Of a stretch of DNA of 64,000 bases, positions 17,415-60,980 are shown piece by piece. Under the pieces are notes generated by a model. The model was not told the DNA's origin. It ran no database searches and was given only the letters and a program-made list of their open reading frames with translations. The position numbers and the translations under genes were made by a program. Source of the DNA: Bacteroidota bacterium (lineage in GTDB: Bacteria; Bacteroidota; Bacteroidia; UBA4408); NCBI GenBank assembly GCA_016718805.1, contig JADKCP010000004.1, positions 403,652-467,651 on the forward strand, read 5' to 3'. Position 1 is the stretch's first letter. Every line of letters starts with the position of its first letter.

Positions 17415-17419
17415 GTTGC

Positions 17420-19246: not shown

Positions 19247-19248
19247 GG

Positions 19249-34941: not shown

Positions 34942-34943
34942 TA

Positions 34944-35591
34944 GTGGAGAATACCGGATTCGAACCGGTCACCTTCCCGATGGATCGGGACGCTCTTGCT
35001 TTTTTTTTGTGGAGAATACCGGATTCGAACCGGTCACCTTCCCGATGGATCGGGACGCTCTTGCTTTTTTTGTGGAGAATACCGGATTCGAACCGGTCAC
35101 CTTCCCGATAGATCGGGACGCTCTTGCTTTTTTTTTTTTGTGGAGAATACCGGATTCGAACCGGTCACCTTCCCGATGGATCGGGACGCTCTTGCTTTTT
35201 TTTGTGGAGAATACCGGATTCGAACCGGTCACCTTCCCGATAGATCGGGACGCTCTTGCTTTTTTTTGTGGAGAATACCTGATTCGAACCGGTCACCTTC
35301 CCGATAGATCGGGACGCTCTTGCTTTTTTTTTGTGGAGAATACCGGATTCGAACCGGTCACCTTCCCGATGGATCGGGACGCTCTTGCTTTTTTTTTGTG
35401 GAGAATACCGGATTCGAACCGGTCACCTTCCCGATAGATCGGGACGCTCTTGCTTTTTTTTTGTGGAGAATACCGGATTCGAACCGGTCACCTTCCCGAT
35501 AGATCGGGACGCTCTTGCTTTTTTTTGTGGAGAATACCGGATTCGAACCGGTCACCTTCCCGATAGATCGGGACGCTCTTGCTTTTTTTTT
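34944..35591 (-). repeat. Tandem array of 10 units, each 63-68 bp. Each unit is the 3'-terminal ~31 nt of tRNA-Ala (variable loop, T arm, acceptor 3' strand and CA) plus a 34-nt flank containing the palindrome CCCGAT(G/A)GATCGGG and an A8-13 tract. Coordinates are given on the tRNA strand.
   Basis: On the plus strand each unit reads GTGGAGAATACCGGATTCGAACCGGTCACCTTCCCGAT(G/A)GATCGGGACGCTCTTGC(T)7-12. Units start at 34944, 35009, 35072, 35140, 35204, 35268, 35333, 35398, 35463 and 35527. Unit 6 carries a G-to-T change (CCTGATTC). Confidence 0.9.
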
Positions 35592-35592
35592 G

Positions 35593-35666
35593 TGGAGAAT
35601 ACCGGATTCGAACCGGTCACCTCTTGCCTGCCAGGCAAGCGCTCTAGCCAAATGAGCTAATTCCCC
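35593..35666 (-). tRNA. tRNA-Ala (anticodon GGC).
   Basis: The reverse complement reads GGGGAATTAGCTCATTTGGCTAGAGCGCTTGCCTGGCAGGCAAGAGGTGACCGGTTCGAATCCGGTATTCTCCA. It has the G3:U70 Ala identity pair, anticodon loop CTGGCAG and discriminator A. Confidence 0.9.
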
Positions 35667-35781
35667 AAGTAATGCGGACTGCGAAAATAGAAAATCTTTT
35701 TATTCGGACTAATTAATTGCAGTAATTTTTTATTTTTGGGAAAGCCTTATAAAGCTTTATATTTACTCATCAAATATACTT

Positions 35782-41173: not shown

Positions 41174-41309
41174 AATTTTTAGTCAACTAGAAAGGAACAG
41201 TTTTGATAATCTATCCCAATTACTGCTAGAAATAGATGCTTGCTGTTAATTTGAACAGTTTTTGAACTCGCTGGATGTAGAAAAATATTAAACAAGGACA
41301 TCCGTCTAA

Positions 41310-43256
41310 TTAAGTGATTACTTTTGCTTGCTCAAGTTTTTCGTTCAAGGCAGCCCAGTTTTCCATTTCCTTTTCGAGCAGCACTTTGGTGGATTCGTAT
41401 TTTTGAAACAGGTCGCTACTTTTCATGGCCTCTTTATATTTTTCAGGATCCATCAGCACTTCATCCATTTGCTTCAGTTCTAATTCGAGTCGTTCAATTT
41501 CTTTTTCGCTTTTGCTTATTTGATTTGAAATTTTTCGAAGTTCCTTTTCATTTTCCCTTTTTTGTTCGAATGAAACTTTGTTCTCTGATTTTCTTTCATC
41601 CGATTCGGCTTTTGCAGCAATTGCTTTTACTTCGAGTTCGCCCAGATTAGCTATTTTTTTTGATGCTAAAAAATCGTACACATCACCAATGTGTTGCTTG
41701 ATGCTTTTGTTGCGAAATTCAAAAACTTTGTTGGTTAATCCTTGTAAAAAATCACGATCGTGGCTCACAATGATTAAGGTTCCATCGTAATTTATTAATG
41801 CTTGTTTCAACACGTCTTTACTGCGCATGTCGAGGTGGTTGGTAGGTTCATCCAACACCAATAAATTATACGGATGTAAAAGTAGTTTGCACATGGCCAA
41901 ACGCGATTTTTCTCCACCTGAAAGTACTTTTACTTTTTTGTCGATAGTATCGCCACTGAATAAAAATGAACCCAGCAAGCCGCGCACATTTTTACGAATT
42001 TCGCCTACAGCAGCTTCATCAATTGTTTCGAAAACCGATTTATCCCCATCCAGCATCTCTGCTTGGTTTTGCGCATAATATCCAATTTCGGTATTGTGAC
42101 CAATTATGAGTTTTCCTTCATAGGATTCCTTGCCAACAATTAACTTTGATAAGGTTGATTTTCCTTCGCCATTTCGTCCAACAAAAGCAATTTTTTCCTG
42201 GCGTTCAATCATAAAATCAACGCCTGTAAAAATGACCTTATCACCATATTTTTTCTGTACTTCCTGCGCTTCCACCACTACTTTTCCTGCACGCGGTGCC
42301 GGTGGAAAACGGAAACGAATACTTGAAGTTTCTTCGTCGTCAACCTCCACTCTTTCGAGCTTATCTAACTTTTTGATTAGGCTTTGTGCAAAAGCTGCCT
42401 TGTTTTTTTTCGCACGAAACTTATTAATAAGCTCTTCGGTATGTTCAATATACTTTTCTTGATTTTTAGCCTCGGCTTGTTGCAATGCTCTACGTTCATT
42501 ACGTAGTTCAACATAGCGCGAATAATTGGTTTTATAATCGTATATTTTACCTAAACTAATTTCTATTGTACGGTTGGTGATGGTATCTAAAAAAGCTCTA
42601 TCGTGACTAACTAACACCAAGGCTCCCGCATAGTTTTTCAAAAAATCTTCGAGCCATTGAATACTTTCAATATCGAGGTGATTGGTTGGCTCATCCAGCA
42701 ACAACACACTTGGTTTTTGAAGTAATATTTTGGCTAGTTCAATGCGCATTCTCCAGCCTCCGCTGAATTCATCCGTTAAACGCGTTAAATCTTCCCGTTC
42801 AAATCCTAATCCAAATAAGACCAGTTCAATGTTGGCATGAATTGAATAGCCATCGAGTAGTTGAAATCGCTCGTTTTTATCGTTAAGTTGGTGTATTAAA
42901 TTATAGTACTCAGTGCTGTTGTGATCTTCTCGGGTTGCTAACTGTTCGTTGATATGTTCGATAGCGTGTTCTAATTCTCTAATTTCCTTAAAAGCAGTAG
43001 CCGCTTCATCAAACACAGAGTTGCCTGATTGATATACCATTTCTTGAGGCAAATAGCCGATAGTACACTCATTTTGTTTCGCGATAGTGCCTGTTTCTGA
43101 TGCTTGTGCACCACTTAATATTTTGAGAAGCGTTGATTTTCCTGCACCATTTTTACCAACCAAACCAATTCGATCGCGCGAATTAACCAAAAACGAAACT
43201 TCGTCGAACAAATAATTTCCCCCAAATTGTACTGATAGTTGATTTACCGAAATCAT
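41310..43256 (-). CDS. ABC-F family ATPase (Uup/YbiT-like): two ABC domains and a C-terminal coiled coil, with no transmembrane domain.
   Basis: Two Walker A motifs (GKNGAGKST, GRNGEGKST) and two signature motifs (LSGGWRMR, LSGGEKSR). Lys/Glu-rich C-terminus. Confidence 0.85.
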   Translation of the reverse strand: MISVNQLSVQFGGNYLFDEVSFLVNSRDRIGLVGKNGAGKSTLLKILSGAQASETGTIAKQNECTIGYLPQEMVYQSGNSVFDEAATAFKEIRELEHAIEHINEQLATREDHNSTEYYNLIHQLNDKNERFQLLDGYSIHANIELVLFGLGFEREDLTRLTDEFSGGWRMRIELAKILLQKPSVLLLDEPTNHLDIESIQWLEDFLKNYAGALVLVSHDRAFLDTITNRTIEISLGKIYDYKTNYSRYVELRNERRALQQAEAKNQEKYIEHTEELINKFRAKKNKAAFAQSLIKKLDKLERVEVDDEETSSIRFRFPPAPRAGKVVVEAQEVQKKYGDKVIFTGVDFMIERQEKIAFVGRNGEGKSTLSKLIVGKESYEGKLIIGHNTEIGYYAQNQAEMLDGDKSVFETIDEAAVGEIRKNVRGLLGSFLFSGDTIDKKVKVLSGGEKSRLAMCKLLLHPYNLLVLDEPTNHLDMRSKDVLKQALINYDGTLIIVSHDRDFLQGLTNKVFEFRNKSIKQHIGDVYDFLASKKIANLGELEVKAIAAKAESDERKSENKVSFEQKRENEKELRKISNQISKSEKEIERLELELKQMDEVLMDPEKYKEAMKSSDLFQKYESTKVLLEKEMENWAALNEKLEQAKVIT

Positions 43257-43408
43257 TGTGTATTAAAAAATAGGCTGCAAAAGTAGGAAATTAGCTGAGG
43301 TATTCTTTTAGGAAACAGTTACACTCTACAAATAAAATATGAAAATAAACTAACTGTAAATGTGTATTCAAAAAGGCTTTTGGGCCTTTATATAGCAGTA
43401 AATTCGGC

Positions 43409-44638
43409 CTATTTTATTTGAATATGTTCCTTTTTAATAAGTGTTTGAGAAGGGTAAAAAGCTGCTAAAAACCCAATGGTAAGCACTGTTCCAAAAACAA
43501 AAACAAAATCGCTAAGTTGCATCCTAACGGGATAGGTATCTACTACAAAAGAACCGCCGCCCGGCATTTTAATCCATCCAAAATGAAGTTGCGATAGGCA
43601 AATTGCGGTTCCCAATAACAAACCTGAAATGCCTCCGATAAAGGAAATCATCAAGCCTTCAGTTAAAAACAATTTTCGAATAAAGGAAACTGTAGCACCC
43701 ATACTTCTTAAAACAACCATATCTTTTTTCTTCTCAATTATGAGCATGGTAAGCGACCCTATTACATTAAACGTAGCGATAATCAATATAAATCCAAGAA
43801 TTAAAAAAACCGCCCATTTTTCTGAACGCATAATTTTATAGAGCAATGCATGTTGCTGGAAGCGGTTTTTCACGATTAATTTGTTTCCGGAAATTTGTTC
43901 AATTTGTGCTTGTACTTTTTTGATATCAGTTCCCGGTTTAATTAGAATTTCAATTGCGCTAACTTGGCTTGAGTAGTTCAACATTTTTTTTACAAAAGGC
44001 AAAGGAAGCAGCACATACTTTGAATCAAAATCTTGTTGTATTGCAAATATTCCACCGGCAGTTACGGCTTCACTTGTAAATGCGCTTTCAGGATTTAAGC
44101 TATTAAAAGTAACACCTCGCCTGGGAACGTATACTTGCAAAAAACTCAACACATCGTGAATATTTACTCCCAATTTATTGGCAACACCTTGACCAACTAA
44201 AGCAAAATACGTGCAGTCGCGTTGCAGGGCAATTTTACCATCGGCAAGCATAGTATCGAGTCCGGTTTGTTGCAAGTAATCACTGTTAACTCCCTTGATG
44301 GTGGCTATATACTGTCGGTTATTGTATTTCAGTAGCGCGTTTTCTTCAACAACAGGACTTAGTGCACGAATTCCTTCAACACTAGTTAATTGTTGGTACA
44401 GGTAATCAGAAGGTTCAAATGTTTTACCATATTTTGCGGTTATTTCAATATCGGGATCAAATGAATTGTACAAGGACATGACCAGATTTTCAAATCCATT
44501 AAATACAGAAAGTACCACAATTAGTGCAGTAGTACCAACGGTTACACCTACAATAGAAATAGCAGTAATAACATTTATCGCATTGTGCGATTTTTTTGAA
44601 ATAAGGTAGCGCCTGGCAATGAATAGTGAAAGATTCAT
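43409..44638 (-). CDS. FtsX-like ABC transporter permease (LolC/LolE-like).
   Basis: 409 aa with an N-terminal transmembrane helix, a large periplasmic loop and three C-terminal transmembrane helices. Confidence 0.7.
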   Translation of the reverse strand: MNLSLFIARRYLISKKSHNAINVITAISIVGVTVGTTALIVVLSVFNGFENLVMSLYNSFDPDIEITAKYGKTFEPSDYLYQQLTSVEGIRALSPVVEENALLKYNNRQYIATIKGVNSDYLQQTGLDTMLADGKIALQRDCTYFALVGQGVANKLGVNIHDVLSFLQVYVPRRGVTFNSLNPESAFTSEAVTAGGIFAIQQDFDSKYVLLPLPFVKKMLNYSSQVSAIEILIKPGTDIKKVQAQIEQISGNKLIVKNRFQQHALLYKIMRSEKWAVFLILGFILIIATFNVIGSLTMLIIEKKKDMVVLRSMGATVSFIRKLFLTEGLMISFIGGISGLLLGTAICLSQLHFGWIKMPGGGSFVVDTYPVRMQLSDFVFVFGTVLTIGFLAAFYPSQTLIKKEHIQIK

Positions 44639-44677
44639 ATGTTCATTTTTAAGCCTTGGCTGATGTACTAACTAAAT

Positions 44678-45484
44678 TTATTTCCAGGCCTTAACTATTA
44701 ATCCGGTACCGGTTGGGTGATCCATATGGGTATCCAAATAGTTAAGCACAAACGAAATCGGATAAGTAATTAAATAATACAGCGGAAGTATGAGGTAAAA
44801 CAATTTAGACTTACCGAGCATTAGAATAGGATATTTCATACTGAGCTTCCACGAAATTTTACCCGGAGTACCGTAAGAGTAGCGCACGTCAGCTTTACTA
44901 AAGCCGGCAGATTTTAATTTATCGGCAATTTCCTTCGCATTGTATCCATCTCTAACATGTTCTTCAATAAATGAAGTTTCTCCATCGCTATGCACATCAG
45001 AACCTCCCTGGTCAGAAGGAGTTGAAATTAACAACATACCACCACTTTTAAGGGAGGCATGAAAGTTTTTGAACACCTGCACATCTTCTAAAATATGCTC
45101 CATCACATCAACTGATAAAACTAAATCAAAACTATTTTCTTGCTTAAAAACAGTGAGGTCTTCAACACTAAAATGCACATTGTTTCGCTTTACTTTCTTA
45201 AAAAAGCGGGAACAATCTGCAACTTGTTCTTCTTTTACATCCACTGCTTTAATTGTCCATTTTGAATTAATACCTGATAGGTAATAGGAATATTGCCCAA
45301 AGCCCATTCCTGCATCAAGAATAGAAATATAGCTTCTACTAGAGCGATTCCACAATTTAATTTCTTTGTGAATATGCCAACTACGAAGCAATAGCAAATC
45401 GAGTAATTTGTAAAAAACGATGCGTAAAAAAGGCGTGGTATTAAAAACTTTACCTAATGAACTTTTAATTGGGTCGTAAAACAT
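44678..45484 (-). CDS. Class I SAM-dependent methyltransferase.
   Basis: ILDAGMGFGQYSYYLS is motif I. Confidence 0.6.
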   Translation of the reverse strand: MFYDPIKSSLGKVFNTTPFLRIVFYKLLDLLLLRSWHIHKEIKLWNRSSRSYISILDAGMGFGQYSYYLSGINSKWTIKAVDVKEEQVADCSRFFKKVKRNNVHFSVEDLTVFKQENSFDLVLSVDVMEHILEDVQVFKNFHASLKSGGMLLISTPSDQGGSDVHSDGETSFIEEHVRDGYNAKEIADKLKSAGFSKADVRYSYGTPGKISWKLSMKYPILMLGKSKLFYLILPLYYLITYPISFVLNYLDTHMDHPTGTGLIVKAWK

Positions 45485-45504
45485 TTGATGAAGCGCAGTA
45501 TAAA

Positions 45505-45852
45505 TTATTTTTTAAGAAGTGATTCAATTTTCATGGCATAGTCGAGCGAGTCGTCGATAAAAAATTCGAAGTTTGGAATTATCCGAACCTGTTGTTTAAT
45601 TCTATCGCCGATGCGTTTTCTGATTTCCTTGCTTTGCGATTTGATAAGCTTAAGTGTTGGTTCCCTATCCTTTTCGATCAAAATACTTAGATACACTTTA
45701 GCAACTGATAAATCAGCACTTATTCGCACTGTTGTAACAGTAATGAAAGCTCTGTTAAATAAGTTTCCACTTTCGCGCTGAAAAAATTCGCCGAGCTCTT
45801 TTTGCAATAGGCGCGATACCTTATTTTGACGTGTAGAATCCATTGTGGGCAA
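45505..45852 (-). CDS. rbfA: Ribosome-binding factor A.
   Basis: ...LFNRAFITVTTVRISADLSVAKVYLS... Confidence 0.8.
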   Translation of the reverse strand: MPTMDSTRQNKVSRLLQKELGEFFQRESGNLFNRAFITVTTVRISADLSVAKVYLSILIEKDREPTLKLIKSQSKEIRKRIGDRIKQQVRIIPNFEFFIDDSLDYAMKIESLLKK

Positions 45853-45874
45853 ATGTATTAAAAAAATCTTCGGA

Positions 45875-47179
45875 TTATTTTAAACGGAAAAACAGTTGTA
45901 GTGGGACACCTTCAAAATCGAACTTAAGTCGCATTTGATTTTCAACAAATCTTCGGTACGATTCCTTTACTAATTGCGGCTGATTGCAGAAAAAAGCAAA
46001 GGAAGGCGCCAGTGTAGGCAACTGGGTACAAAATTTAATTTTTATGTATTGTCCATTTAAAGCAGGTGGTGGATTGGCTTGTATAATGGGAAGCATTACC
46101 TCGTTGAGTACATTGGTTTTTATTCGCTGTGTGCGGTTTTGATGCACTTTGGTAGCTACTTCCAATGCTTTAAATATGCGTTGTTTGCTTAACGCAGAAA
46201 TAAAAACAATGGGAACATCCTTGAATGGCATCAATTTTTTACGAATTTTTTCTTCGTAGTCTTTGGTGGTATTATTTTCCTTTTCTATTAAATCCCATTT
46301 ATTCACTAGGATAACTATACCCTTTCGATTGCGTTCAGCTAGGTGAAAAATATTTAAATCCTGAGATTCAATTCCTTCCTTCGCATCGAGCACTAATAAG
46401 CAAACATCGCAGCTTTCGATAGCTTTAATAGAGCGCATTACGGAATAAAATTCGAGGTCTTCGTGAACCTTTCCTTTCTTTCGAACTCCTGCTGTATCAA
46501 CCAATAAAAAATCGTGTCCAAAGCTTTGGTAGCGCGTGTGAATTGTATCGCGTGTGGTACCAGCTATATTGGTTACAATGTTTCGCTCCTCGCCTACTAA
46601 GGCATTCAGTAGTGACGATTTTCCAACATTCGGGCGACCAACAATTGCAAACTTTGGTAGGTCGAGTTGTTCTTCATCTTCTTCACTCTTAAAGGATTTT
46701 ACCACATCGTCGAGTAAATCACCTGTGCCGCTGCCATTTATTGACGAGATGCAATACACTTCTCCAAGACCTAAACCATAAAATTCAGCAGCCCATGCCT
46801 GACGGTCGCCATTATCCACCTTGTTGGCTATTAAAAATACCTTCTTTTTTGTTTTTCGAAGTAAATTGGCAACATCTCTATCGTCGTCAGTAGCACCGGT
46901 CGCAACATCCACTACAAATAAAAGTACAGATGCTTCGTCAATTGCAATTTTTACTTGCTTCCGTATTTCTCCTTCAAAAATATCGTCAGAACCTGTTACA
47001 TAGCCACCCGTATCAATTACACTAAACTCACGACCATTCCATTCACATTTTCCATAGTGACGGTCGCGGGTAACGCCGCTAATTTCGTCGACAATGGCAG
47101 CACGGGTTTCGGTAAGGCGATTAAAAAGCGTTGATTTTCCAACATTAGGACGACCAACAATTGCTACAATATTTGACAC
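45875..47179 (-). CDS. der: Ribosome-associated GTPase Der (EngA).
   Basis: Two GTPase domains: [19 protein letters not shown] and [18 protein letters not shown]. Confidence 0.9.
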
Positions 47180-47579
47180 GGTACGCAGGTTTTAAAACAA
47201 AAAAGCCGATGAATCGGCTTCTACATCTACTTATTTTCGGAAACAAATGTACTTAAACTTTGCGACATTTGGTTATAAAGCGAACCTTCTCTTCAAAATA
47301 AGTGGGAAAAATCAAAGTGATTATTCTTTTGTAGATTAATGTTGACAAGCCTTTGGGATTTTTATTCTCTGATTTCTTTTTTTAGATTTGCGTTCTAATT
47401 AACCTAAAATCAATTGAATCCTTATGAAAATATTTGTACGAAATAATTTTTCGAAAATAATTAGAAGTGTATTAATACAAAAAAAATAGTAATAGAATAA
47501 TAGCTGTTTTATATGCTAGATGTCGTTATACAGAAAATAAAATCACACTAACAAATTCAATTCAATCAGTTAATAGCAC

Positions 47580-50500
47580 ATGAAAAAACTTAGAAGTAGC
47601 TTAAAATTAATATTGGCTTTAGTTCTGTGTCTTGGTGTTAAACAAGCTTCAAGTCAAATAACAGTTTCAACTACCAATACCTTTACAAATAATAACGGTA
47701 GTGGTACTGTAACATTTAACTTTGAAAATACCAACACAAGCGACATTATCATTACCGATATTGAAGGAATAACCGGATCAAGTGGCACATTTTCGGTAGA
47801 TTTTTGGTATAAAACTACTCCGGTTAATGGGGCTCCGGGAGCAATTTCGGTAGCAAATGGTTGGACACTTGTTGCAACAGGTACGATAACAGGTGTTGCC
47901 AACACAATCTCTACAACCACTCAATCATTTTTTAGCGGATTGAATTTTAATGTTCCGGCTGGAGCGCTTTATGGATTTGCTGTATCGGCTTACAATGGAA
48001 CTGCCGGAGTTCAACGTTATCATACAATTGTTGCCCCCAATCTTCCAACTGTAACAATGTCGGCAGGTGGTTGTAACATTATAACGGGAACAAACATTGG
48101 ATATGGAGGCGGAGCACCGCCAACAGCGCCAGGAAACACACCGCGAGGTTGGTTAGGTTCTATCTCTTTTATACCTGCAATTCCCTGTACTGCACCGCCT
48201 ACAGCTGGTATGACAATTTCAAATGATTCAACTGTTTGCCCTAACACAAATTTCACGCTTGGTTTAACAGGAAACACACTGGCTTCAGGATTGTCATACC
48301 AATGGTTATCTTCTTCCAATAACACAAGCTGGACTCCTATTTCCGGTGCTACAAATATTAATTATAATACTAGCCAATTAACAAATACCTATTATCGTTG
48401 TATTGTTACCTGCAACAGTGTAAGTGATACTTCGAGCAGTGTATTTATTACTACCAATTCATTTATTAATTGCTATTGTACTTCAAATCCAACTTCAGCA
48501 GCTGGTAGTGATATAGGAAATCTTGCTGTTGCCAGTTTAAATAATGGAGTTGCCGGTGCTGCAACTAACAACCCAGCATCAACCGGAACCTATACTGATT
48601 ACACTTCTTTACCTCCTACTGCGCTCACCCAAGGAGCAAGCTATCCATTAGCTATTACTCAAATCAATAGTGCCGGTTTTACAGTGAACTTTGCAACTGT
48701 TCATATTGATTTTGATCACGATGGTATTTTTGACCCGGTGACCGAAACTTTTGCTATTGGAGCAAGTAACGCTGCTGCAGGAGGAAACATAATTAACGGG
48801 AATATTGCTATACCATTTACTGCGTTAACCGGTCAAACCAGAATGCGTGTAAAATTGCAAGCAGGAGGTTCAGCGACACAAAGTCCTTGTGGGACTTACG
48901 GAACCGGTGAAACAGAGGATTATATTGTTTCAATTGCAGCTGGTTCACCTTGTACGGCACCGCCAACAGCAGGTACCACTATGAGTTCGCTTTCGAGCGT
49001 GTGTCCTAGTACATCGGTTACTATTTCATTAAGTGGAAATTCAATAGGCACCGGTCAAACTTATGTTTGGGAATCTTCTCCGAATGGAACAAACTGGACA
49101 ACAGTTAATGGTGTAAGTTCAACCTTTTTTATTGCGACAATCACTAACACAATTCAGTACCGTTGTATAGTAACTTGCAGTGGGCAAAGCGCAACTTCAA
49201 CTCCTGTTGTCGTTACAATTAACCCACCTTCGTTATGTTATTGTGTAACCGGGCTTGGTGGTGGAAACTGTGGAGGTAATTTAATAACCACGGTAGAAAT
49301 AACCGGAACAACCCTGAATAGTGTATCAGCTGATACCTGTACCTTTACAACCGGAAATACATTAACTGTTTATCCGCCAACAGGTGCAACCACTGCAACA
49401 TTAATTCAAGGTGTTACATATGACTTAAATGTAACACTTTCTGCGAGCAGTATAGTTTCTGTTTGGATTGACTATGATAGGAATGGAATATATGCAGCAA
49501 GTGAATGGCAGCAGGTTGCAGTTACTTCAACATCAGGAACACCCAATACAATTCAAATTAATGTTCCCTTTTCATCTGGCCTCGGCCAAACAGGTATGCG
49601 TGTGAGAAGTAGAGGTGTGGGTAATACTAATGGAGCTCCGGATGCATGTACCAATTTTGGTAGTGGTGAATCTGAAGACTATGTTATAACTATTATTCCG
49701 AATACACCTTGTGCAGGAACTCCAATTGCAGGTACAACGGTATCTAGTGTTGTTTCAGCCTGTCCGAATGTTCCTTTCAGCTTAAGTTTAAGTGGAAATA
49801 CACTAGCTTCAGGCTTAACATATCAATGGCAAAATTCAACCAATAATGTTTTATGGAATTCTATAACTGGAGCAACTAATGTGGGCTATTCAACTACGCA
49901 GGTTGCTGACTATTATTACAGATGTATTGTTAGTTGTGGCGCTGCTTCCGATACTTCAACTGCTTTATTAGTAACAACAAATTCATTTTTTACTTGTTAC
50001 TGTGCTTCAAATGCAACCGACCCGGCTGATAGCGATATTGGAAATGTAAGCATTGGTTCATTAAATAATGGGAATCCAAATCCTGCAACAAACAATTCAA
50101 CGGCTACTTCAACCTATACCAGTTATAGTAACGTTTCACCGCCTGTATTGCTAAAAGGATTAAATTATCCTATTTCAGTAACACAAATAAACCAGCTTGC
50201 ATTTTTAGCTTGCAACTTAAAAGTGTATATCGATTATAACCAAGATGGAATTTATGATACAGCAACTGAGGAAGTGCTTAATGGACAGTCGAATGCAAAT
50301 TTAGGTGGTAATGTAATGAGTGGAAATGTGCAGATTCCAACTACTGCTAGTAGTGGTTTAACTGGAATGCGCGTGGTTCTGGTGGAGGGAACGTTTTCGA
50401 CTGTTACACCTTGTGGAACTTATTTTAATGGTGAAACAGAAGATTATATTGTAGAAATACAAACTCCATTGCCTTGTAGCACTCCTCCTGCTGCTGGAAC

Positions 50501-52271
50501 TGCGATATGTACAGCTACCTCAGTATGTGCAAACACTCCATTTGATTTAAATTTATCAGGAAGTGCTAATGCTTCCGGGTTAACCTATCAATGGCAAGAA
50601 TCGAGCAATGGAACTAGTTGGCAAAATTTACCAGGAGCTACTTCCATTTTGTATTCCTATTCACAGGTTGCTGCAACTTATTATCGTTGTGAAGTTATTT
50701 GTTCAGGAGTTTCATCTTTTTCAACACCTGTTTTAGTAGGTTTAAATTCGTTTTATACCTGCTATTGTACCAGCGGAGCCACCAGCACAGGAGACGATGA
50801 TATAGGTAATGTTACTTTTGGATTAATGAGTAATGGTATTGCAAGTCCTTCTACTCAAAATCCTACTTCTGTAAATACCTATTCAAATTTCACGAATTTG
50901 CCACCATATAGCTATATACAAACACTTACCTACCCTATTTCAATGACACAAATTAATTTGAATGGATTTTATGTTAATAGTGGGGCTATTTTTATTGATT
51001 TTGACCACGATGGAACATTTGACCCTTCTACCGAATCGGTATTGAGTGGTACTACATCGGCAGGGAATACTACTATAAGTGGCACTTTAACAATCCCTCT
51101 TTCTGCCTTAACCGGAATAACCGGAATGCGTGTTGTAATGAAAGAAACCGCTACCCCTGCAGCCCAGCCTTGTGGAACTTATACTTGGGGTGAAACAGAA
51201 GATTACTTGATAAATATTTTAGCACCCAACTCTTGCACAGTACCGTTTATTGCCGGCTTTGCAAAAACAAGTTCTAGTCTTGTTTGTGCAAGCGATGTAT
51301 TTACATTATCAATTGACAGTTTGCCGCCAGATACTGGATTTACTTTTCAATGGCAACAATCGTTTGACAGCATTAATTGGAGCAATATTGTTGGAGCTAC
51401 TACCCAAATATATAATGGAACACAAAGTTTTAAATCGTGGTACCGCTGTAATGTTACCTGCAATGGGGGAAGTATGGAAAGCTCAATTGCAACTAAAATA
51501 CTGAACAAACCGGTTACTCAGTGTGATTATTGCAACTCCATTATCAATGGGAATTGCAGTACCGATTATTTTATTGACTCATTGGCTATTGGTGGAACAA
51601 CCTTAAATAATGCCAACACTGGTTGTGCTGCCAATGCCGGATTTGCATATTCAAAATATCCGTTCAATGGTAATACAACAGCTGATTTAGGTAGAGGCAA
51701 TTACTACGATTTGTACGTAAAAACTTCGGGGTCTTGCAATATTTCAGTTTGGATAGATTATGATCAAAGTGGAACTTTTGATGCTAAGGAGTGGATTCAG
51801 GTTAGTCAAGCAACCGATTCGGCTGTGGCTACTACTGTTCCTTTAGTATTACCTACCGGCGCAACATTAGGTGCAACCGGACTTCGAATTCGTTCGCGCA
51901 AAGCCGGTAACATAAACATGGCAGCAGATGCTTGTAGCACTTATGGTAGTGGCGAAACTGAGGACTATTACATAAATATAATAGAGGCTATTTCTACCGG
52001 TAAGGAACTAAGTAACGATAAAAATGTTCGCATATATCCCAATCCGGCATCAGGAAATGTAACTTTGGAATATCACTCTGAAGAGGCAAAAACTTTACAG
52101 ATAAAGTTATTAAACGCAACTGGAAGTTGTGTGTTTTCTGAAACTACAGATAAATTTAAAAATAGTTATTCTGCCAAATTATCCTTAGATGATTTTGCTC
52201 CGGGAATTTATTTTGTACAGTTTACTACTGATAAATCTGTAAGTATAAAAAAGCTGATTATTCAAAAATAA
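47580..52271 (+). CDS. Giant T9SS cargo protein of 1563 aa. Architecture: signal peptide, a unique N-terminal domain, then about 5 repeats of an Ig-like module plus a module ending in GxGETEDY (GEVED-like), then a T9SS type-A CTD.
   Basis: Repeated CTAPPTAG...YRCIVTC and ...PCGTY(x)xGETEDY(I/L)(V/I) blocks. The C-terminus is VRIYPNPASGNVTLEYHSEEAKTLQIKLLNATGS...GIYFVQFTTDKSVSIKKLIIQK. Confidence 0.8.
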   Translation: MKKLRSSLKLILALVLCLGVKQASSQITVSTTNTFTNNNGSGTVTFNFENTNTSDIIITDIEGITGSSGTFSVDFWYKTTPVNGAPGAISVANGWTLVATGTITGVANTISTTTQSFFSGLNFNVPAGALYGFAVSAYNGTAGVQRYHTIVAPNLPTVTMSAGGCNIITGTNIGYGGGAPPTAPGNTPRGWLGSISFIPAIPCTAPPTAGMTISNDSTVCPNTNFTLGLTGNTLASGLSYQWLSSSNNTSWTPISGATNINYNTSQLTNTYYRCIVTCNSVSDTSSSVFITTNSFINCYCTSNPTSAAGSDIGNLAVASLNNGVAGAATNNPASTGTYTDYTSLPPTALTQGASYPLAITQINSAGFTVNFATVHIDFDHDGIFDPVTETFAIGASNAAAGGNIINGNIAIPFTALTGQTRMRVKLQAGGSATQSPCGTYGTGETEDYIVSIAAGSPCTAPPTAGTTMSSLSSVCPSTSVTISLSGNSIGTGQTYVWESSPNGTNWTTVNGVSSTFFIATITNTIQYRCIVTCSGQSATSTPVVVTINPPSLCYCVTGLGGGNCGGNLITTVEITGTTLNSVSADTCTFTTGNTLTVYPPTGATTATLIQGVTYDLNVTLSASSIVSVWIDYDRNGIYAASEWQQVAVTSTSGTPNTIQINVPFSSGLGQTGMRVRSRGVGNTNGAPDACTNFGSGESEDYVITIIPNTPCAGTPIAGTTVSSVVSACPNVPFSLSLSGNTLASGLTYQWQNSTNNVLWNSITGATNVGYSTTQVADYYYRCIVSCGAASDTSTALLVTTNSFFTCYCASNATDPADSDIGNVSIGSLNNGNPNPATNNSTATSTYTSYSNVSPPVLLKGLNYPISVTQINQLAFLACNLKVYIDYNQDGIYDTATEEVLNGQSNANLGGNVMSGNVQIPTTASSGLTGMRVVLVEGTFSTVTPCGTYFNGETEDYIVEIQTPLPCSTPPAAGTAICTATSVCANTPFDLNLSGSANASGLTYQWQESSNGTSWQNLPGATSILYSYSQVAATYYRCEVICSGVSSFSTPVLVGLNSFYTCYCTSGATSTGDDDIGNVTFGLMSNGIASPSTQNPTSVNTYSNFTNLPPYSYIQTLTYPISMTQINLNGFYVNSGAIFIDFDHDGTFDPSTESVLSGTTSAGNTTISGTLTIPLSALTGITGMRVVMKETATPAAQPCGTYTWGETEDYLINILAPNSCTVPFIAGFAKTSSSLVCASDVFTLSIDSLPPDTGFTFQWQQSFDSINWSNIVGATTQIYNGTQSFKSWYRCNVTCNGGSMESSIATKILNKPVTQCDYCNSIINGNCSTDYFIDSLAIGGTTLNNANTGCAANAGFAYSKYPFNGNTTADLGRGNYYDLYVKTSGSCNISVWIDYDQSGTFDAKEWIQVSQATDSAVATTVPLVLPTGATLGATGLRIRSRKAGNINMAADACSTYGSGETEDYYINIIEAISTGKELSNDKNVRIYPNPASGNVTLEYHSEEAKTLQIKLLNATGSCVFSETTDKFKNSYSAKLSLDDFAPGIYFVQFTTDKSVSIKKLIIQK

Positions 52272-52291
52272 CAGAAAAGTCTTCGTGTTTA

Positions 52292-52325
52292 CAAAAAAGT
52301 CCTTATTTTTAAGGACTTTTTTGCT
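52292..52325 (+). terminator. Rho-independent terminator after the first giant gene.
   Basis: AGTCCTTA tttt TAAGGACT followed by TTTTTTGCTTTTA. Confidence 0.7.
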
Positions 52326-52404
52326 TTTATACCCTCAATCAACCATATTTTATTCTTAATTTCAATTGCGGCATACCATCATCAATGATTAACCAACCTT
52401 AACT

Positions 52405-55400
52405 ATGAAAAAAAACTACACTACAAATTATCAAAAAACTAAACTACTTCTGTGCACTTTGCTTGCAATTTTTTTGGTGTCGAGCAACAATGTTATGGCA
52501 CTAATTAACTCATATGGGTTTAGTTCAAGCCTTGGAACCTATGCACCAATAAGCGGTGGAACAATTTTAGGAACCAATACAACCGATGATGAGCGCTTTG
52601 TTGACCCAAACAATTTAGCCGGTAGCACAGCCTTCTTAACAGGAGTTGGTTTTCCAATTGGTTTTAACTTTAGTTACGATGGAGTAATTTACGATGTATT
52701 TGGAGTTAATGCCAATGGATGGATAGTGCTTGGAAACAATGCTCTAGTTGATTTAAATGCTCCTAACTATGGACCAATTTCGGGAGCCGGTGGAACAAAC
52801 GTTATTGCAGCATTGGCCCGTGATATACAGGCTCAAACCGGTGCTAGCATCGAATTTAAAACCATAGGAATTGCTCCTAATCAAACATTGGTTGTGCAAT
52901 GGAATAATTACAAGAAATATGGAACTAATGGAACCAACGATACGATTAATTTTCAAATTCGATTAAACGAAAGTAGCAATTCAATACAATGTGTTTATGG
53001 AAGCATTTTATTAAATTCCAACACAGCCGATGCCCAAGTAGGTTTAAGAGGAATTGACCCTACTGATTACAATAACCGTGAAACTACTACCAACTGGGGA
53101 GCTACCGTTTTAGGAACTTCTAATTCGGCCATTTGTGCATTTTCAAGTACCGTATTTCCTTTAAACGGTACAACTTTTACTTGGACAATTCCATTACCTT
53201 GCAGTGGTACACCAACTGCAGGAACGGCACTTTCATCGGTAACCAATTCTTGTCCGGGTACTCCTTTTGCTTTATCGCTTACAGGAAATACAGTTGCATC
53301 GGCGTTAAGCTATCAATGGCAAATTTCACCCAACGGATCATCTTGGACGAATATAACCGGAGCCACTGCTTTAAATCAATCAATGACACAATCATCGCCA
53401 AACTTTTACCGATGTGTGGTTACTTGTGTTGGGGTTTCTGATACCTCGAGTCAAGTTTATGTTGGCACCAATTCATTTATTACCTGCTATTGCACATCAG
53501 GAGCTACCAGTACTTTTGATGACGATATCGGAAATGTAACATTCGGCTCAATCAACAATGGAGTCGGTACACCTGCAACGCAAAATTCAAGCTCAACGAA
53601 TACCTATACCGATTTTACTAATTTGCCTGTACAAACATTTTTACAAGGAATTAATTATCCGATATCAATAACGCAAATTAATTCAGCAGGCTTTTATGCA
53701 TGTAGAATTGCTGCATTTATTGATTACGATCAAAATGGTGTATTTGATACAACATCTGAAAAAATTTATACCGGAGTTACCAATGCGAATGTGGGTGGTA
53801 ACGTAGTTTCAGGAACAGTAACGATTCCTTTAACTTCAACTCCCGGAAATACATTAATGCGTGTTGTTTTATTAGAAGGACTTTTCAATACCATGGATCC
53901 TTGTGGTACTTATACTTGGGGAGAAACAGAAGACTATATGGTAAATATTCAAGCTGCTGTGCCTTGTACTGCGCCTCCAACTGCAGGTATGGCTTATGCG
54001 AACGATTCTACAGTTTGTCCTTCGGTTAACTACAATTTAAATTTATCAGGAAGTTCTATCGCTTCCGGATTGAGTTATCAGTGGGAAAAATCAAGCAATG
54101 GAACAACTTGGGCTGCTGTCTCTGGTGCCACTGCAATAAACTACCAAACCTCACAAACCAGCGATAATTATTACCGTTGTATCGTAACTTGTTTAGGTGT
54201 TCCCGATACTTCTACCGTTGTGTTCATTTCAACCAATAGCTTCACCACCTGTTATTGTACTTCCAATGCCACCGACCCTGCCGATAGCGATATTGGAAAT
54301 GTGAGTTTGGGTGCTCTCAACAATGGAAATCCAAATCCTGCAGTTAATAATACAAATGCTACTGCTACTTACACCAATTATACCTCGGTTACAGCTCCGG
54401 TATTGTTGCAAGGAATTAATTATCCCATTTCGATCACCCAAATCAGCCAGTTTAATTTTAATGCTTGCAATGTTAAAGCCTATATCGACTACAATCAAAA
54501 CGGTATTTATGACCCGGCTACAGAAGAGGTTTTTTCAAACCAAACAACTTCTAACCAAGGGGGAAATGTGGTGAGTGGAGTTATTACCATTCCGCTTACT
54601 GCATTAAACGGACTTACCGGCATGCGTGTAGTGATGGTAGAAGGAACTTTTAACACGGTAACACCTTGTGGTACATATTTTAATGGTGAAACCGAAGATT
54701 ATGTTGTAGACATTCAAACTCCGTTGCCGTGTACTACCCCACCTGTTGCTGGTATTGCGGTAAGTTCGGCCCCATCGGTTTGCGCTAACGCACCATTTGA
54801 TTTAAATTTAACCGGTAGTGCAAATGCCTCAGGTTTAACCTATCAATGGCAAGAATCGAGCAATGGTACTACCTGGAATGACATCGTGGGAGCTACTTCA
54901 ATTCTTTACTCTTACGCACAGCTTATAGCAACCCATTACCGATGTGTAGTTACCTGCAGCGGTATTCAGTCAAACTCTACACCTGTATTGGTTGGCATGA
55001 ATTCATTTTTTAGCTGCTACTGCACCAGTGGCGCTACCAGCACCGGTGACGACGATATTGGAAATGTAACATTTGGCTTATTGAATAATGGAGTAGCTAG
55101 CCCTGCTACCCAAAATCCAACTTCGGTAAATACTTACTCCGATTTTACCAACTTACCGCCTTATAGCTACATACAAACTTTGACCTATCCAATGTCGATG
55201 ACACAAATTAATTTGAATGGATTTTATGTGTGCAGCGGAGCTATTTTTATTGATTTTGACCACGATGGAACATTTGACCCTTCTACCGAGTCAGTATTGA
55301 GCGGTACTACTTCTGCCGGAAATACAACCATTAGCGGAACTTTAACTATTCCTTTAACTGCAGCAACCGGTATAACAGCCATGCGTGTGGTGTTGAAAGA

Positions 55401-56358
55401 AGGTGCCAATCCTGCTGCACAACCTTGCGGAACCTATACCTGGGGTGAAACAGAAGATTACCTCATCAATATTTTAGCACCTAACTCTTGCACTGTACCT
55501 TTCATTGCAGGATTTGCTAAAACAAATTCGAACTTGGTGTGTGCTTCAGATATCTTTACTTTATCGCTTGATAGCTTGCCTCCAGATACTGGTTTTACTT
55601 TTCAGTGGCAACAATCGTTTGATAGCATTAACTGGAACAACATAGCAGGTGCAACTGTTCAAATTTACAGCGGTTCGCAAAGCTTTAATTCATGGTATCG
55701 TTGCAACGTTACCTGCAATGGTGGAACCATGGAAAGCTCTGTTGCAACCAAGGTAATGAACAAACCTGTAACACAATGTGATTATTGCAATTCAAGCATC
55801 AGCGGAAACTGCAGCACCGATTATTTTATTGATTCCTTAGCTATTGGAGGTACTACCTTTAACAATGCCAACACAGGCTGTGCTGCCAATGCAGGATTTG
55901 CCTATTCAAGATATCCAATAAACGGTAATACTACTGCGGATTTAGGACGTGGAAATTACTTCGATTTGTATGTAAAAACTTCGGGATCATGTAATATTTC
56001 AGTATGGTTGGATTATGACCAAAGCGGAACTTTTGATGCCAACGAATGGATACAGGTTAGTCAGGCAACTGATTCTGCTGTTACTACTACTGTGCCTTTA
56101 GTATTACCTGCCGGAGCTCAACTGGGTGCAACCGGTATGCGTGTGCGTTCACGCAAAGCCGGAAACATAAACTTAGGGGCTGATGCTTGCACCAATTACG
56201 GTAGTGGTGAAACAGAAGATTATTATGTAAACGTTGTGGAAGCTATTTCAACAGGTAAGGAGTTAAGCAACGATAAAAATGTGCGCATTTATCCAAACCC
56301 TGCATCAGGATTTGTTACGGTTGAGTACCGTTCAGAAGAGGCAAAGAGTTACAAATAA
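52405..56358 (+). CDS. Second giant paralog of at least 1317 aa, built from Ig-like plus GETEDY modules. The ORF stops inside what should be the T9SS CTD.
   Basis: Same modular repeats as the first giant gene. The C-terminal ~550 aa are about 85-90% identical to 47580..52271. It ends ...RIYPNPASGFVTVEYRSEEAKSYK*. Confidence 0.75.
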   Translation: MKKNYTTNYQKTKLLLCTLLAIFLVSSNNVMALINSYGFSSSLGTYAPISGGTILGTNTTDDERFVDPNNLAGSTAFLTGVGFPIGFNFSYDGVIYDVFGVNANGWIVLGNNALVDLNAPNYGPISGAGGTNVIAALARDIQAQTGASIEFKTIGIAPNQTLVVQWNNYKKYGTNGTNDTINFQIRLNESSNSIQCVYGSILLNSNTADAQVGLRGIDPTDYNNRETTTNWGATVLGTSNSAICAFSSTVFPLNGTTFTWTIPLPCSGTPTAGTALSSVTNSCPGTPFALSLTGNTVASALSYQWQISPNGSSWTNITGATALNQSMTQSSPNFYRCVVTCVGVSDTSSQVYVGTNSFITCYCTSGATSTFDDDIGNVTFGSINNGVGTPATQNSSSTNTYTDFTNLPVQTFLQGINYPISITQINSAGFYACRIAAFIDYDQNGVFDTTSEKIYTGVTNANVGGNVVSGTVTIPLTSTPGNTLMRVVLLEGLFNTMDPCGTYTWGETEDYMVNIQAAVPCTAPPTAGMAYANDSTVCPSVNYNLNLSGSSIASGLSYQWEKSSNGTTWAAVSGATAINYQTSQTSDNYYRCIVTCLGVPDTSTVVFISTNSFTTCYCTSNATDPADSDIGNVSLGALNNGNPNPAVNNTNATATYTNYTSVTAPVLLQGINYPISITQISQFNFNACNVKAYIDYNQNGIYDPATEEVFSNQTTSNQGGNVVSGVITIPLTALNGLTGMRVVMVEGTFNTVTPCGTYFNGETEDYVVDIQTPLPCTTPPVAGIAVSSAPSVCANAPFDLNLTGSANASGLTYQWQESSNGTTWNDIVGATSILYSYAQLIATHYRCVVTCSGIQSNSTPVLVGMNSFFSCYCTSGATSTGDDDIGNVTFGLLNNGVASPATQNPTSVNTYSDFTNLPPYSYIQTLTYPMSMTQINLNGFYVCSGAIFIDFDHDGTFDPSTESVLSGTTSAGNTTISGTLTIPLTAATGITAMRVVLKEGANPAAQPCGTYTWGETEDYLINILAPNSCTVPFIAGFAKTNSNLVCASDIFTLSLDSLPPDTGFTFQWQQSFDSINWNNIAGATVQIYSGSQSFNSWYRCNVTCNGGTMESSVATKVMNKPVTQCDYCNSSISGNCSTDYFIDSLAIGGTTFNNANTGCAANAGFAYSRYPINGNTTADLGRGNYFDLYVKTSGSCNISVWLDYDQSGTFDANEWIQVSQATDSAVTTTVPLVLPAGAQLGATGMRVRSRKAGNINLGADACTNYGSGETEDYYVNVVEAISTGKELSNDKNVRIYPNPASGFVTVEYRSEEAKSYK

Positions 56359-56517
56359 AACTCATGAATCCTGAGGGAAGAGTGATTTATACTGAAAGCA
56401 ACGATAAATTCAAAGCTATTCACACAAATTAAATGTAAACGACCTGGCGCGTGGAATTTACTTTGTGCAATTCATTAGTGATAAGCAAGTGCTTACTAAG
56501 AAGGTAGTACTTAATTA
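56359..56517 (+). pseudogene. Out-of-frame remnant of the T9SS C-terminal sorting domain of gene 52405..56358, with two frameshifts.
   Basis: Alternative frames read ELQIKLMNPEGRVIYTESNDKFKAIHTN* and then KLNVNDLARGIYFVQFISDKQVLTKKVVLN*. These align to KTLQIKLLNATGSCVFSETTDKFKNSYSAKLSLDDFAPGIYFVQFTTDKSVSIKKLIIQK of the paralog. Confidence 0.7.
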
Positions 56518-56536
56518 AAAAAAACAAAGCAACATA

Positions 56537-56578
56537 AACAAGGGCTGGGTTAATTGACTCAGCCCTTGTTTTATTTTA
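56537..56578 (+). terminator. Rho-independent terminator.
   Basis: AACAAGGGCTG ggttaattgact CAGCCCTTGTT followed by TTATTTTAT. Confidence 0.7.
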
Positions 56579-59153: not shown

Positions 59154-60980
59154 ATGAAAAAACATTTTTATTACCTAACTGCATTAACTGTAGCCTTAGT
59201 TTCTTGCAAGAATTCATCAACCAGCACCGACAAAAACGCTTTGCTGCAACAACAAGCTCAAAGTTATTTGAATTCCTACAATGCCGAATATCAGCGCCTA
59301 TCAATAGTAGCCAACGAAGCTTCGTGGAAATCGAACACTTACATTGTTGAAGGCGATACTGCAACAAAAAATGCTACTAACCGAAGCAGTGAAGCAATCG
59401 CTGTGTTTACAGGAAGTAATGCGAATATCGACAGTGCTAAAAAATACCTGGCTGTAAAAGAGCAGTTAACCGATATTCAGGTGAAGCAATTTCAGTTTAT
59501 TTTGTATAACGCTGCCAATAATCCTGAAAGTTTGAAGGACATGGTTAAATCGCGAATTACTGCCGAAACTGAACAAAACGACAAGCTCTTTGGCTACAAT
59601 TTTATGATTGACGGCAAAAAGGTTTCTACGAATGAAATTGATGCGGTTTTATCCACTGAAACAGACATAAAGAAACGCGAAAAAGCATGGGAATCGAGCA
59701 AGCAAGTTGGATTGGTTTTAAAAGACGGATTAGCTAATTTACAACAATTGCGCAACAATACGGTAAAGCCTCTTGGTTATCCTGACTACTTTACCTATCA
59801 GGTTTCGGACTACGGTATGACTACCGAAGAAATGATGAAAATGAACAAGCAAATGATTAAAGACATTTGGCCGTTGTACCGAGAATTACATACTTGGGCG
59901 CGTTATAATTTGGCTGCAAAATATAAAGTAAAAGAAATTCCTGAATATTTACCTGCACATTGGTTGAGCAATCGTTGGGGACAAGATTGGAGCGGACTTG
60001 TTGAAGTAAAAGGTTTAAATCTTGATAGCGTTTTGAAATCGAAAAGTAAGGAGTGGATGGTGGAACAGGCTGAGCGTTTTTATGTGAGTTTAGGAATGCC
60101 GTCTTTACCTAAATCGTTTTATGAAAAATCTAGTTTGTTTCCTGCTCCAGCAGATGCTACTTACAAAAAAAACAACCATGCTTCAGCTTGGCATATGGAT
60201 TACGATCAGGATGTAAGAAGTTTAATGAGTATAGTTCCAAATTCAGAATGGTATGAAACGTTACACCATGAACTGGGACATATTTATTATTATTTGTGTT
60301 ATTCAAATCCGGAGGTTCCTATTATTTTACGCAGTGGAGCCAACCGTGCTTATCATGAAGGTTTTGGAAGTATGATTGGAATGGCTGCTATGCAAAAACC
60401 TTTTTTAGAAGGCTTGAAATTGATACCTGAAAACACGCCTACTGATGATACACAAACCTTGTTAAAAGAGGCTTTAAATTACATTGTATTTATACCTTGG
60501 AGTGCCGGTGTGATGACGAATTTTGAACATGAATTGTATACCAACAATCTTTCAAAAGATGCCTACAACAAAACCTGGTGGGATTTGGTTAAAAAATATC
60601 AAGGAATTGTACCTCCTAACCCGCGTGGAGAAGAGTATTGTGATGCAGCATCTAAAACACATATTAATAACGATGCAGCGCAATATTATGATTATGCTTT
60701 ATCCTACCTATTTATTTTTCAGGTACATGAACACATTGCAAAAAACATTTTACACCAAGACCCACATGCTACCAATTATTATGGCAGTAAAGAAGTAGGA
60801 ACCTTTTTGAAAAACATAATGACTCCGGGTGCCAGCAAAGATTGGAGAGAAGTATTTAAAGCTAACATGGGCGAAGATTTAAGTGCAAAAGCTATGTTAA
60901 ACTATTTTATGCCATTGATGGATTATTTGAAAAAAGAAAATGCAGGTAGGAAATATACATTGCCAGAAACTATTGATTAA
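59154..60980 (+). CDS. M2-family (ACE-like peptidyl-dipeptidase) zinc metallopeptidase, a probable lipoprotein.
   Basis: HHELGHIYYY is an HEXXH motif, and the downstream HEGFGSMIG is like the ACE HEAIGD motif. 608 aa with a lipobox-like LVSCKNS. Confidence 0.6.
   Translation: MKKHFYYLTALTVALVSCKNSSTSTDKNALLQQQAQSYLNSYNAEYQRLSIVANEASWKSNTYIVEGDTATKNATNRSSEAIAVFTGSNANIDSAKKYLAVKEQLTDIQVKQFQFILYNAANNPESLKDMVKSRITAETEQNDKLFGYNFMIDGKKVSTNEIDAVLSTETDIKKREKAWESSKQVGLVLKDGLANLQQLRNNTVKPLGYPDYFTYQVSDYGMTTEEMMKMNKQMIKDIWPLYRELHTWARYNLAAKYKVKEIPEYLPAHWLSNRWGQDWSGLVEVKGLNLDSVLKSKSKEWMVEQAERFYVSLGMPSLPKSFYEKSSLFPAPADATYKKNNHASAWHMDYDQDVRSLMSIVPNSEWYETLHHELGHIYYYLCYSNPEVPIILRSGANRAYHEGFGSMIGMAAMQKPFLEGLKLIPENTPTDDTQTLLKEALNYIVFIPWSAGVMTNFEHELYTNNLSKDAYNKTWWDLVKKYQGIVPPNPRGEEYCDAASKTHINNDAAQYYDYALSYLFIFQVHEHIAKNILHQDPHATNYYGSKEVGTFLKNIMTPGASKDWREVFKANMGEDLSAKAMLNYFMPLMDYLKKENAGRKYTLPETID

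Follow-up and report, generated by a model that had tools for sequence, protein, structure and literature searches.

The closest described systems to the locus studied here are the RemA family of gliding adhesins in Flavobacterium johnsoniae (RemA and RemZ, Fjoh_0803), the adhesin CshA of Streptococcus gordonii, and proteins made of long strings of β-sandwich domains that end in a C-terminal domain (CTD) for a type IX secretion system (T9SS), such as SprB, the CHU_C proteins and GhpA of Aureispira. The locus consists of two adjacent genes, hereafter gene 1 and gene 2, on a 64,000-nt stretch of the genome of an uncultured member of the Bacteroidia (GCA_016718805.1, contig JADKCP010000004.1) that we call the window. 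Gene 1 encodes, in this order, a signal peptide, a first N-terminal domain (head 1), five units made of one immunoglobulin (Ig)-like module and one module containing the Pfam domain GEVED, a linker and a type A T9SS CTD, and gene 2 encodes a signal peptide, another N-terminal domain (head 2), four such units and a CTD that is broken in the window. Judging from these sequences, the two products are predicted to be T9SS adhesin-like surface proteins of a kind that is ordinary among Bacteroidota, and we consider it quite likely that the pair represents an anciently duplicated tandem T9SS cargo, with didomain stalks placed under distinct putative binding heads.

The RemA family resembles this pair in four respects. 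The N-terminal domain of the gene 2 protein is homologous to that of RemA-type proteins: a head 2 profile built from 22 members matched residues 23-228 of the PDB chain 8gl6_D, deposited as 'RemA' (E 2.6e-13), and head 1 gave no match. This family was reached by the profile only; phmmer with the full-length gene 2 protein found no match among PDB sequences. An Ig-like module of the YQWQ...YYRC type is found in both genes, and the 'RemA' chain of F. johnsoniae was matched by its profile at residues 611-697 (3.7e-5). The CTDs of the RemA family are of type A (PMC12618676), and PorV is the carrier of such CTDs (PMC12618676, PMC10994853). Sizes are also comparable, with 1436 aa in that family and 1372-1563 aa here. 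There are differences too: the body of the proteins described here is mostly GEVED modules, whereas the profile of these modules gave no match to 8gl6_D. RemA reportedly has a SUEL-type galactose/rhamnose-binding lectin domain, whereas no lectin family was found among the Pfam matches with E <= 0.01 of either window protein.

GEVED was defined from CshA, and Barringer et al. class it among the stalk domains found in fibrillar adhesins (PMC10952558). The motif and the domain lie well above threshold in the window proteins, where GEVED is predicted to serve, as in CshA, as a stalk element beneath a binding domain (PMC10952558). CshA nevertheless has a single GEVED, located after its NR2 ligand-binding domain, and a C-terminal anchor domain, whereas GEVED is repeated four to five times here, alternates with Ig-like modules, forms one half of a sandwich of 160 aa and belongs to a T9SS cargo. 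Pfam searches gave no match to CshA_NR2 in either protein.

The long β-sandwich strings ending in a T9SS CTD are shared with SprB, the CHU_C proteins and GhpA, and fragments of GhpA were found among the Foldseek matches of our unit model (ranks 23 and 26), where the likeness is generic (TM 0.25-0.30). GhpA is nevertheless far larger, its PDB fragments starting at residues 2892 and 3402. SprB, with about 6,500 aa, is also far larger than the window proteins. Moreover, SprB has a type B CTD, unlike the pair described here (PMC12618676).

The locus was compared with those of the metagenome-assembled genome (MAG) GCA_017988095.1 (L001), of GCA_016721255.1 (L060) and of a MAG of a sister species, DAORJK01 (L002/L003).

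Architecture of the two proteins

The features of the gene pair are as follows, with positions in the window.

47580..52271, + strand: gene 1, an open reading frame (ORF) of 1563 aa with Pfam matches
47580..47654, + strand: signal peptide of gene 1, MKKLRSSLKLILALVLCLGVKQASS, then Q, the cleavage site being placed by eye
47655..48182, + strand: head 1, about 176 aa (aa 26-201)
48183..51989, + strand: repeat region of gene 1, with units at 48183-48947, 48948-49706, 49707-50471, 50472-51230 and 51231-51989 (aa 202-456, 457-709, 710-964, 965-1217 and 1218-1470)
49912..52234, + strand: gene 1 copy of a shared colinear 3' block, made of the GEVED module of unit 3, units 4 and 5 and the CTD (partner in gene 2: 54167-56484)
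52032..52268, + strand: type A T9SS CTD of gene 1 (aa 1485-1563), matching PF18962 and TIGR04183
52292..52323, + strand: terminator-like hairpin between genes 1 and 2 (14 pairs, T tail)
52405..56358, + strand: gene 2 as found in the window, an ORF of 1317 aa ending at a premature stop
52504..53202, + strand: head 2, about 233 aa (aa 34-266)
53197..56244, + strand: repeat region of gene 2, with units at 53197-53961, 53962-54726, 54727-55485 and 55486-56244 (aa 265-519, 520-774, 775-1027 and 1028-1280)
56263..56517, + strand: disrupted type A CTD of gene 2, from the alignment with gene 1 and the sister MAG
56536..56571, + strand: terminator-like hairpin just 3' of the frame-corrected end of gene 2 (16 pairs)

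A first-pass annotation of this DNA, made from the sequence alone, had described two adjacent giant paralogous ORFs built from four to five repetitions of an Ig-like and a GEVED module. Both ORFs are there, on the same strand, with the five and four units listed above, and only the word 'giant' is a loose fit for proteins of 1.3-1.6 thousand residues. When judged by eye, both N-termini display a basic n-region, a hydrophobic core and a c-region of small residues. The units are 253-255 aa long (765 nt) and follow a strict period according to the positions of two motifs, CxxPPxAG...YRCxVxC and PCGTYxxGE[TS]EDY, that recur regularly, with GE[TS]EDY being present in nine of the nine units. The Pfam check that the annotation had proposed gave matches to GEVED (PF20009) that are far above the cut-off of 24.4 bits for both proteins: 287.7 bits (3.6e-87) over five stretches for gene 1 and 240.1 bits (2.5e-72) over four stretches for gene 2. 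The first ~279 nt of each unit encode the Ig-like module (~93 aa) and the rest encodes the GEVED-containing module (~160 aa), so that the repeated modules are as had been described, at sizes slightly bigger than the ~80 and ~140 aa first given. Units 2 and 5 of gene 1 and unit 4 of gene 2, which have extra cysteines, form a subtype B.

Our unit alignment contained 29 sequences: eight of the nine window units, the near-duplicate unit 3 of gene 2 being left out, and 21 of 23 segments from full-length homologues. An AlphaFold2 (AF2) model of gene 1 unit 4 (pLDDT 92.2, pTM 0.78) was all-β and contained two β-sandwich domains, the first with seven strands (residues 1-92, pLDDT ~87-98) and the second with about eleven (residues 93-253). 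Foldseek searches of the PDB with this didomain returned tandem Ig, FnIII and complement macroglobulin domains with a probability of 1.0, and these matches are generic and give no functional lead, since their TM is only 0.25-0.30. Profile searches against PDB sequences were more specific for the Ig-like module, which matched the 'Immunoglobulin-like domain protein' 9ncf_S (2.3e-14) and the phage tail protein 9c2d_S (1.2e-10) in addition to the RemA chain mentioned above. The Ig-like label of the first-pass annotation is therefore supported by the seven-strand sandwich and by matches to solved chains, despite the CHU_C-associated Pfam family Ig_7 (PF19081) reaching 16.9 bits at best (E 0.0078), in one unit only and below its threshold of 27.3 bits.

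In every unit, we found an EF-hand-like loop, [IL]D[YF][DN]x[DNS]G, with a glutamate at the canonical position 12 of the loop in subtype B units. Considering this EF-hand-like DxDxDG loop together with the acidic GE[TS]EDY motif, the GEVED-containing sandwich is probably a putative Ca2+-stabilised rigid spacer. The combination of the two modules is not particular to this locus: the Ig-like + GEVED didomain was found in 23 full-length homologues and in many of 58 related loci, mostly from Bacteroidota. Tandem arrays of two to four genes are frequent among these 58 loci, and such arrays recur in loci labelled Crocinitomicaceae, Cryomorphaceae and Flavobacteriales. The Ig-like + GEVED pair can thus be seen as a recurrent unit, in which the Pfam GEVED model spans half of the folded module.

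The C-terminus of the gene 1 protein matched Por_Secre_tail (PF18962, 55.3 bits, 8.3e-15, aa 1485-1561, cut-off 27) and TIGR04183 (48.4 bits, aa 1485-1562, cut-off 23), which supports the earlier proposal that secretion of these proteins may depend on the T9SS. Residues 1483-1561 also resemble the PDB chain 8glk_D, deposited as 'Endonuclease I'. From this architecture, a mode of action can be proposed. Each protein would be exported by Sec through its N-terminal signal peptide, the T9SS translocon and its shuttle PorV would then recognise the type A CTD, as expected for this family, and the protein would end on the cell surface or be released. The array of four to five didomain units, each predicted to consist of a disulfide-containing Ig-like sandwich followed by a ~160-aa sandwich whose C-terminal half corresponds to Pfam GEVED, may form a rigid and possibly Ca2+-dependent rod holding out the N-terminal head, and the distinct head of each protein would do the ligand binding. 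The suggestion of the first-pass annotation that different heads stand on a common repeat region, in an adhesin-like architecture, is consistent with what we found.

Several observations weigh against this proposal. No T9SS machinery genes were found within the 64-kb window; a T9SS is nevertheless implied in the genome, because four other genes of the window encode a CTD. Of the 160 aa of the module, the Pfam GEVED model spans no more than the last 78, each GEVED being preceded by an unrelated β-strand region of ~80 aa inside the same module. Conservation of the two units nearest to the cell equals that of the CTD, though T9SS targeting needs the CTD alone; a common surface partner may account for this. 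Finally, the sole relative of the GEVED module among PDB sequences, 9x1i_A, is insignificant (E 0.037), and since this match lies in a glycosidase, the module may have a carbohydrate-binding rather than a spacer role.

If that was the case, the GEVED modules would be the binding units, similar to carbohydrate-binding modules, and each protein would act as a multivalent lectin, and not as a passive stalk with a head on top. The region matched in 9x1i_A is the C-terminal region of an endo-β-N-acetylglucosaminidase, and a further match of the GEVED module lies towards the C-terminus of NF047971 (positions 651-772), the model for Leptospira M4 thermolysin. Binding modules commonly adjoin catalytic domains. 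The same module is annotated between FN3 and Secre_tail of the T9SS protease EK4-1 (PMC10178186), and the modules of the distal units are strongly diverged, with 25-58% identity when the three colinear unit pairs that belong to the shared block are set aside. The insignificance of the 9x1i match and the classification of GEVED with stalk domains (PMC10952558) nevertheless speak against a lectin. Conservation is also strongest in the modules nearest to the cell, which is easier to reconcile with a structural role than with one in ligand specificity. A multivalent lectin therefore seems unlikely to us, and we keep to the reading in which GEVED-containing stalks carry the heads.

Two unrelated heads

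The N-terminal regions of the two proteins had been noticed to differ, and heads 1 and 2 are indeed unrelated to each other. Head 1 has only nine homologues, none of which (0/9) has a Pfam domain, and its profile gave no match among PDB sequences or Pfam. It tops Ig-GEVED proteins in loci labelled Crocinitomicaceae, Flavobacteriales and Chitinophaga.

Head 2 is far more widespread. When its profile was compared with 1.84 billion cluster representatives, 21,069 matched at E <= 1e-3 and 11,935 at E <= 1e-10, and, of the 150 best matches, the large majority have the domain at residues ~22-262. Among 40 sampled carriers, Por_Secre_tail was found in 24, fn3 in 18 and GEVED in 16, and no catalytic family was among the recurring families listed for them. 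Close homologues of head 2 often consist of the head and a CTD only. No Pfam family matched head 2 in the copy searched. The NIDO family (PF06119) was considered and rejected, since it reached 13.5 bits (E 0.07) with a threshold of 25 bits and matched three of the 22 members (best E 3.9e-4), so that a relationship between head 2 and NIDO would be remote at most; Collagen_bind was also below threshold. The AF2 model of head 2 is of high quality (pLDDT 90.6, pTM 0.91), and a fold search of the PDB with it gave nothing significant (best E 0.14), the weak matches being jelly rolls of lectin or GH16-like type. In the viral library BFVD, two phage proteins were matched (E ~7e-5, TMq 0.50), which is uninformative.

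The trapped substrate in 8gl6_D is RemZ (Fjoh_0803), a homologue of RemA, and only its CTD is resolved (PMC10994853), so that the head 2 domain is without a solved structure. Head 2 thus links the proteins described here to the RemA family, and reveals a very large family of N-terminal domains without a model in the Pfam copy searched. Future work on the tip of RemA or RemZ would carry over to the whole head 2 family.

Age of the duplication and of the shared 3' block

The 3' halves of the two genes had been described as near-identical in DNA, and a recent duplication or gene conversion had been proposed to have homogenised them. A colinear similarity does extend over 2.3 kb and the proteins are 87-90% identical over the last 450 residues, as would be expected from such an event. 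In DNA, however, the block at 49912-52234 is 76.0% identical to that at 54167-56484 over 2327 columns of a blastn alignment, and the interval that had been singled out (50550-52080, aligned with 54805-56335) is 78.9% identical. Identity in windows of 150 nt varies between 61 and 87%, and exact runs reach 50 nt at most. Over the last 450 codons, the proportion of synonymous differences (pS) is 0.53-0.80, which is saturated, and nonsynonymous divergence (dN) is 0.05-0.09. Orthologues, moreover, group gene by gene: gene 2 of the window is 93% identical in nucleotides to its sister-species orthologue (L003), whereas this orthologue is 78% identical to gene 1 of the window. Given this saturated pS, low dN and gene-by-gene grouping, we see next to no chance that the block results from a recent duplication or conversion.

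Since orthologues pair gene by gene and since synonymous sites are saturated between the paralogues, the duplication is instead ancient, older than the split from the sister species, and it is purifying selection that has maintained the protein similarity. Comparisons with the sister species are consistent with such a selection, with a dN/dS of 0.054 for gene 1 orthologues and of 0.02-0.055 for gene 2. Synonymous divergence (dS) between the two species is about 0.3-1. This pair therefore provides a clean case in which ~90% protein identity masks a saturated synonymous divergence, and it warns against inferring a recent conversion from protein likeness.

Divergence between orthologues is uneven along the locus: dS is ~1.1 in the greater part of gene 1, 0.48 at aa 1051-1350 of this gene and 0.14-0.6 in the greater part of gene 2. 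Lineages may have recombined with each other, or synonymous sites may be constrained.

Within the shared block, which starts in the GEVED module of gene 1 unit 3 and gene 2 unit 2 (74% identity), the next colinear pair (gene 1 unit 4 and gene 2 unit 3) is 74% identical in its Ig part and 91% in its GEVED part, and the last one (gene 1 unit 5 and gene 2 unit 4) 85% and 88%, respectively. Gene 2 unit 2 (53962-54726) is a mosaic that combines an Ig part nearest to that of gene 1 unit 1 (66%) with a GEVED part nearest to that of gene 1 unit 3 (74%), which indicates that Ig and GEVED halves were shuffled separately and points to a putative recombination at the domain boundary.

Repeat collapse or mis-assembly had been named as what could undo the description of these repeats. 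The number of units is the same in GCA_017988095.1, in GCA_016721255.1 and in the sister MAG, and alignments of orthologues are without indels. Collapse is excluded because copy number agrees in these three other assemblies, and the units, which are 62-81% identical to one another in DNA, are also too diverged to collapse. The agreement is closest for GCA_017988095.1, which has a residue-identical copy of the gene 1 protein on a contig that is 99.979% identical to window positions 40982-55306 with zero gaps. A 1.12-Mb contig of GCA_016721255.1 ('Bacteroidetes bacterium') is 99.94% identical to positions 37580-57939, and in the sister species ('Bacteroidia bacterium', DAORJK01) these genes are present and identically ordered, with ~85-93% nucleotide identity.

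The frameshifted end of gene 2 and the surroundings of the pair

In the window, the gene 2 ORF stops at 56358, after the first 31 residues of the CTD (by alignment with the gene 1 CTD) and an out-of-frame SYK. When compared with gene 1, the sister species and GCA_016721255.1, the CTD region of gene 2 lacks one T of a TTT at ~56348 and an AAGG at ~56412, and these two frameshifts explain why gene 2 is without a CTD match in the window. Once both deletions are restored, the original stop codon ends at 56517. The end at 56517 given by the first-pass annotation is thus the true end of the frame-shifted CTD, and what had been missed is the frameshift that makes the uninterrupted ORF shorter. Gene 2 is intact in GCA_016721255.1 (1372 aa, with PF18962 on record), and the CTD of the sister species is intact too. 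In GCA_016721255.1, it is gene 1 that is broken, by two 1-nt homopolymer deletions in the head.

Because a genome that is 99.94% identical and the sister species both have an intact gene 2 CTD, we lean towards residual assembly error, rather than biology such as a pseudogene private to this genome, as the source of the gene 2 deletions. Alternatively, the frameshifts in the gene 2 CTD and in gene 1 of GCA_016721255.1 may be real and the locus may be decaying or switching, strains of one population inactivating either surface protein, for example under pressure from phages or grazers. Over 20.4 kb, the two genomes differ by six substitutions and four indel events (T6/T5, CCC/CC, TTT/TT and the 4-nt AAGG), and all four indels are frame-shifting and fall in the two repeat genes, two per assembly and in different genes. 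These genes make up ~44% of the compared length, so that the chance of such a distribution is ~0.04. The 4-nt deletion is no simple homopolymer error, and the locus has demonstrably lost a third paralogue (see below). The tracts are nevertheless short (T6, C3, T3), unlike those of contingency loci, and no long simple-sequence tract indicative of phase variation was found at any of the four indel sites. In addition, both genes evolve at the low dN/dS given above (0.02-0.055), the truncated gene 2 product was looked up in other assemblies and none is on record, and a terminator is still placed after the original gene 2 stop. The 1.1-Mb contig of GCA_016721255.1 also suggests a long-read assembly, in which residual indels are common, and its IPP locus tags presumably belong to an activated-sludge long-read MAG project. 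Real frameshifts are thus doubtful. That all four private frameshifts are real, with co-existing strains turning off either of the T9SS proteins and the locus having lost its third paralogue too, strikes us as improbable; if it was true, the two proteins would be targets of strong fluctuating selection, for instance as phage or grazer receptors.

The genes flanking the pair are housekeeping genes. Upstream and on the minus strand are der/EngA, rbfA, a methyltransferase and an FtsX-type permease, and downstream are a class II aminoacyl-tRNA synthetase, a transketolase-like protein and an M2 peptidase. In the sister MAG, a third paralogue of 785 aa is located between der and gene 1 (L002, 4657-7032) and is organised as signal peptide-GEVED-Ig-GEVED-Ig-GEVED-CTD. 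To judge from the aligned sequences, this paralogue is lost from the window genome, where a 22-codon remnant of its start is left, and since it is reduced to such a remnant, the gene content of the locus appears to be in flux. The terminator-like hairpins sit after the true end of each gene of the pair. A scan for sigma-70 promoters at the gene pair gave matches at chance level, and the Bacteroidetes-type TTTG...TAnnTTTG pattern had no promoter-oriented match upstream of gene 1 or gene 2, its sole nearby match (52263-52295) being on the opposite strand.

The remnant and the other features of the window are the following.

47424..47489, + strand: start remnant of the third paralogue, 22 codons (window MKIFVRNNFSKIIRSVLIQKK*, sister MKIVIPIHFSKLIASVFF)
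59154-60980, + strand: bacterial M2 (angiotensin-converting-enzyme-like) peptidase
241-3432 and 3439-6234, + strand: tandem T9SS cargo pair with BNR/PSII_BNR-like repeats, Ig_3/I-set above the Pfam threshold and Por_Secre_tail
30870-32810, - strand: T9SS cargo gene with N-glycanase_C and Por_Secre_tail
35782-38685, + strand: T9SS cargo gene with a PKD array and CHU_C (type B CTD)
6360-6433 and 35593-35666, - strand: two tRNA genes (Rfam, 67.4 and 64.3 bits)
14337-20325, - strand: DnaE-type polymerase III alpha (1025 aa), Y-family polymerase (IMS domains, 608 aa) and radical SAM protein, back to back
27050-28753, - strand: MORN-repeat-variant protein of 567 aa

The second tRNA gene lies within a ~1.1-kb stretch (34675-35782) without a convincing protein gene. 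At least six CTD-bearing genes are present in the 64 kb. The back-to-back set at 14337-20325 resembles an imuB-dnaE2-type mutagenesis cassette.

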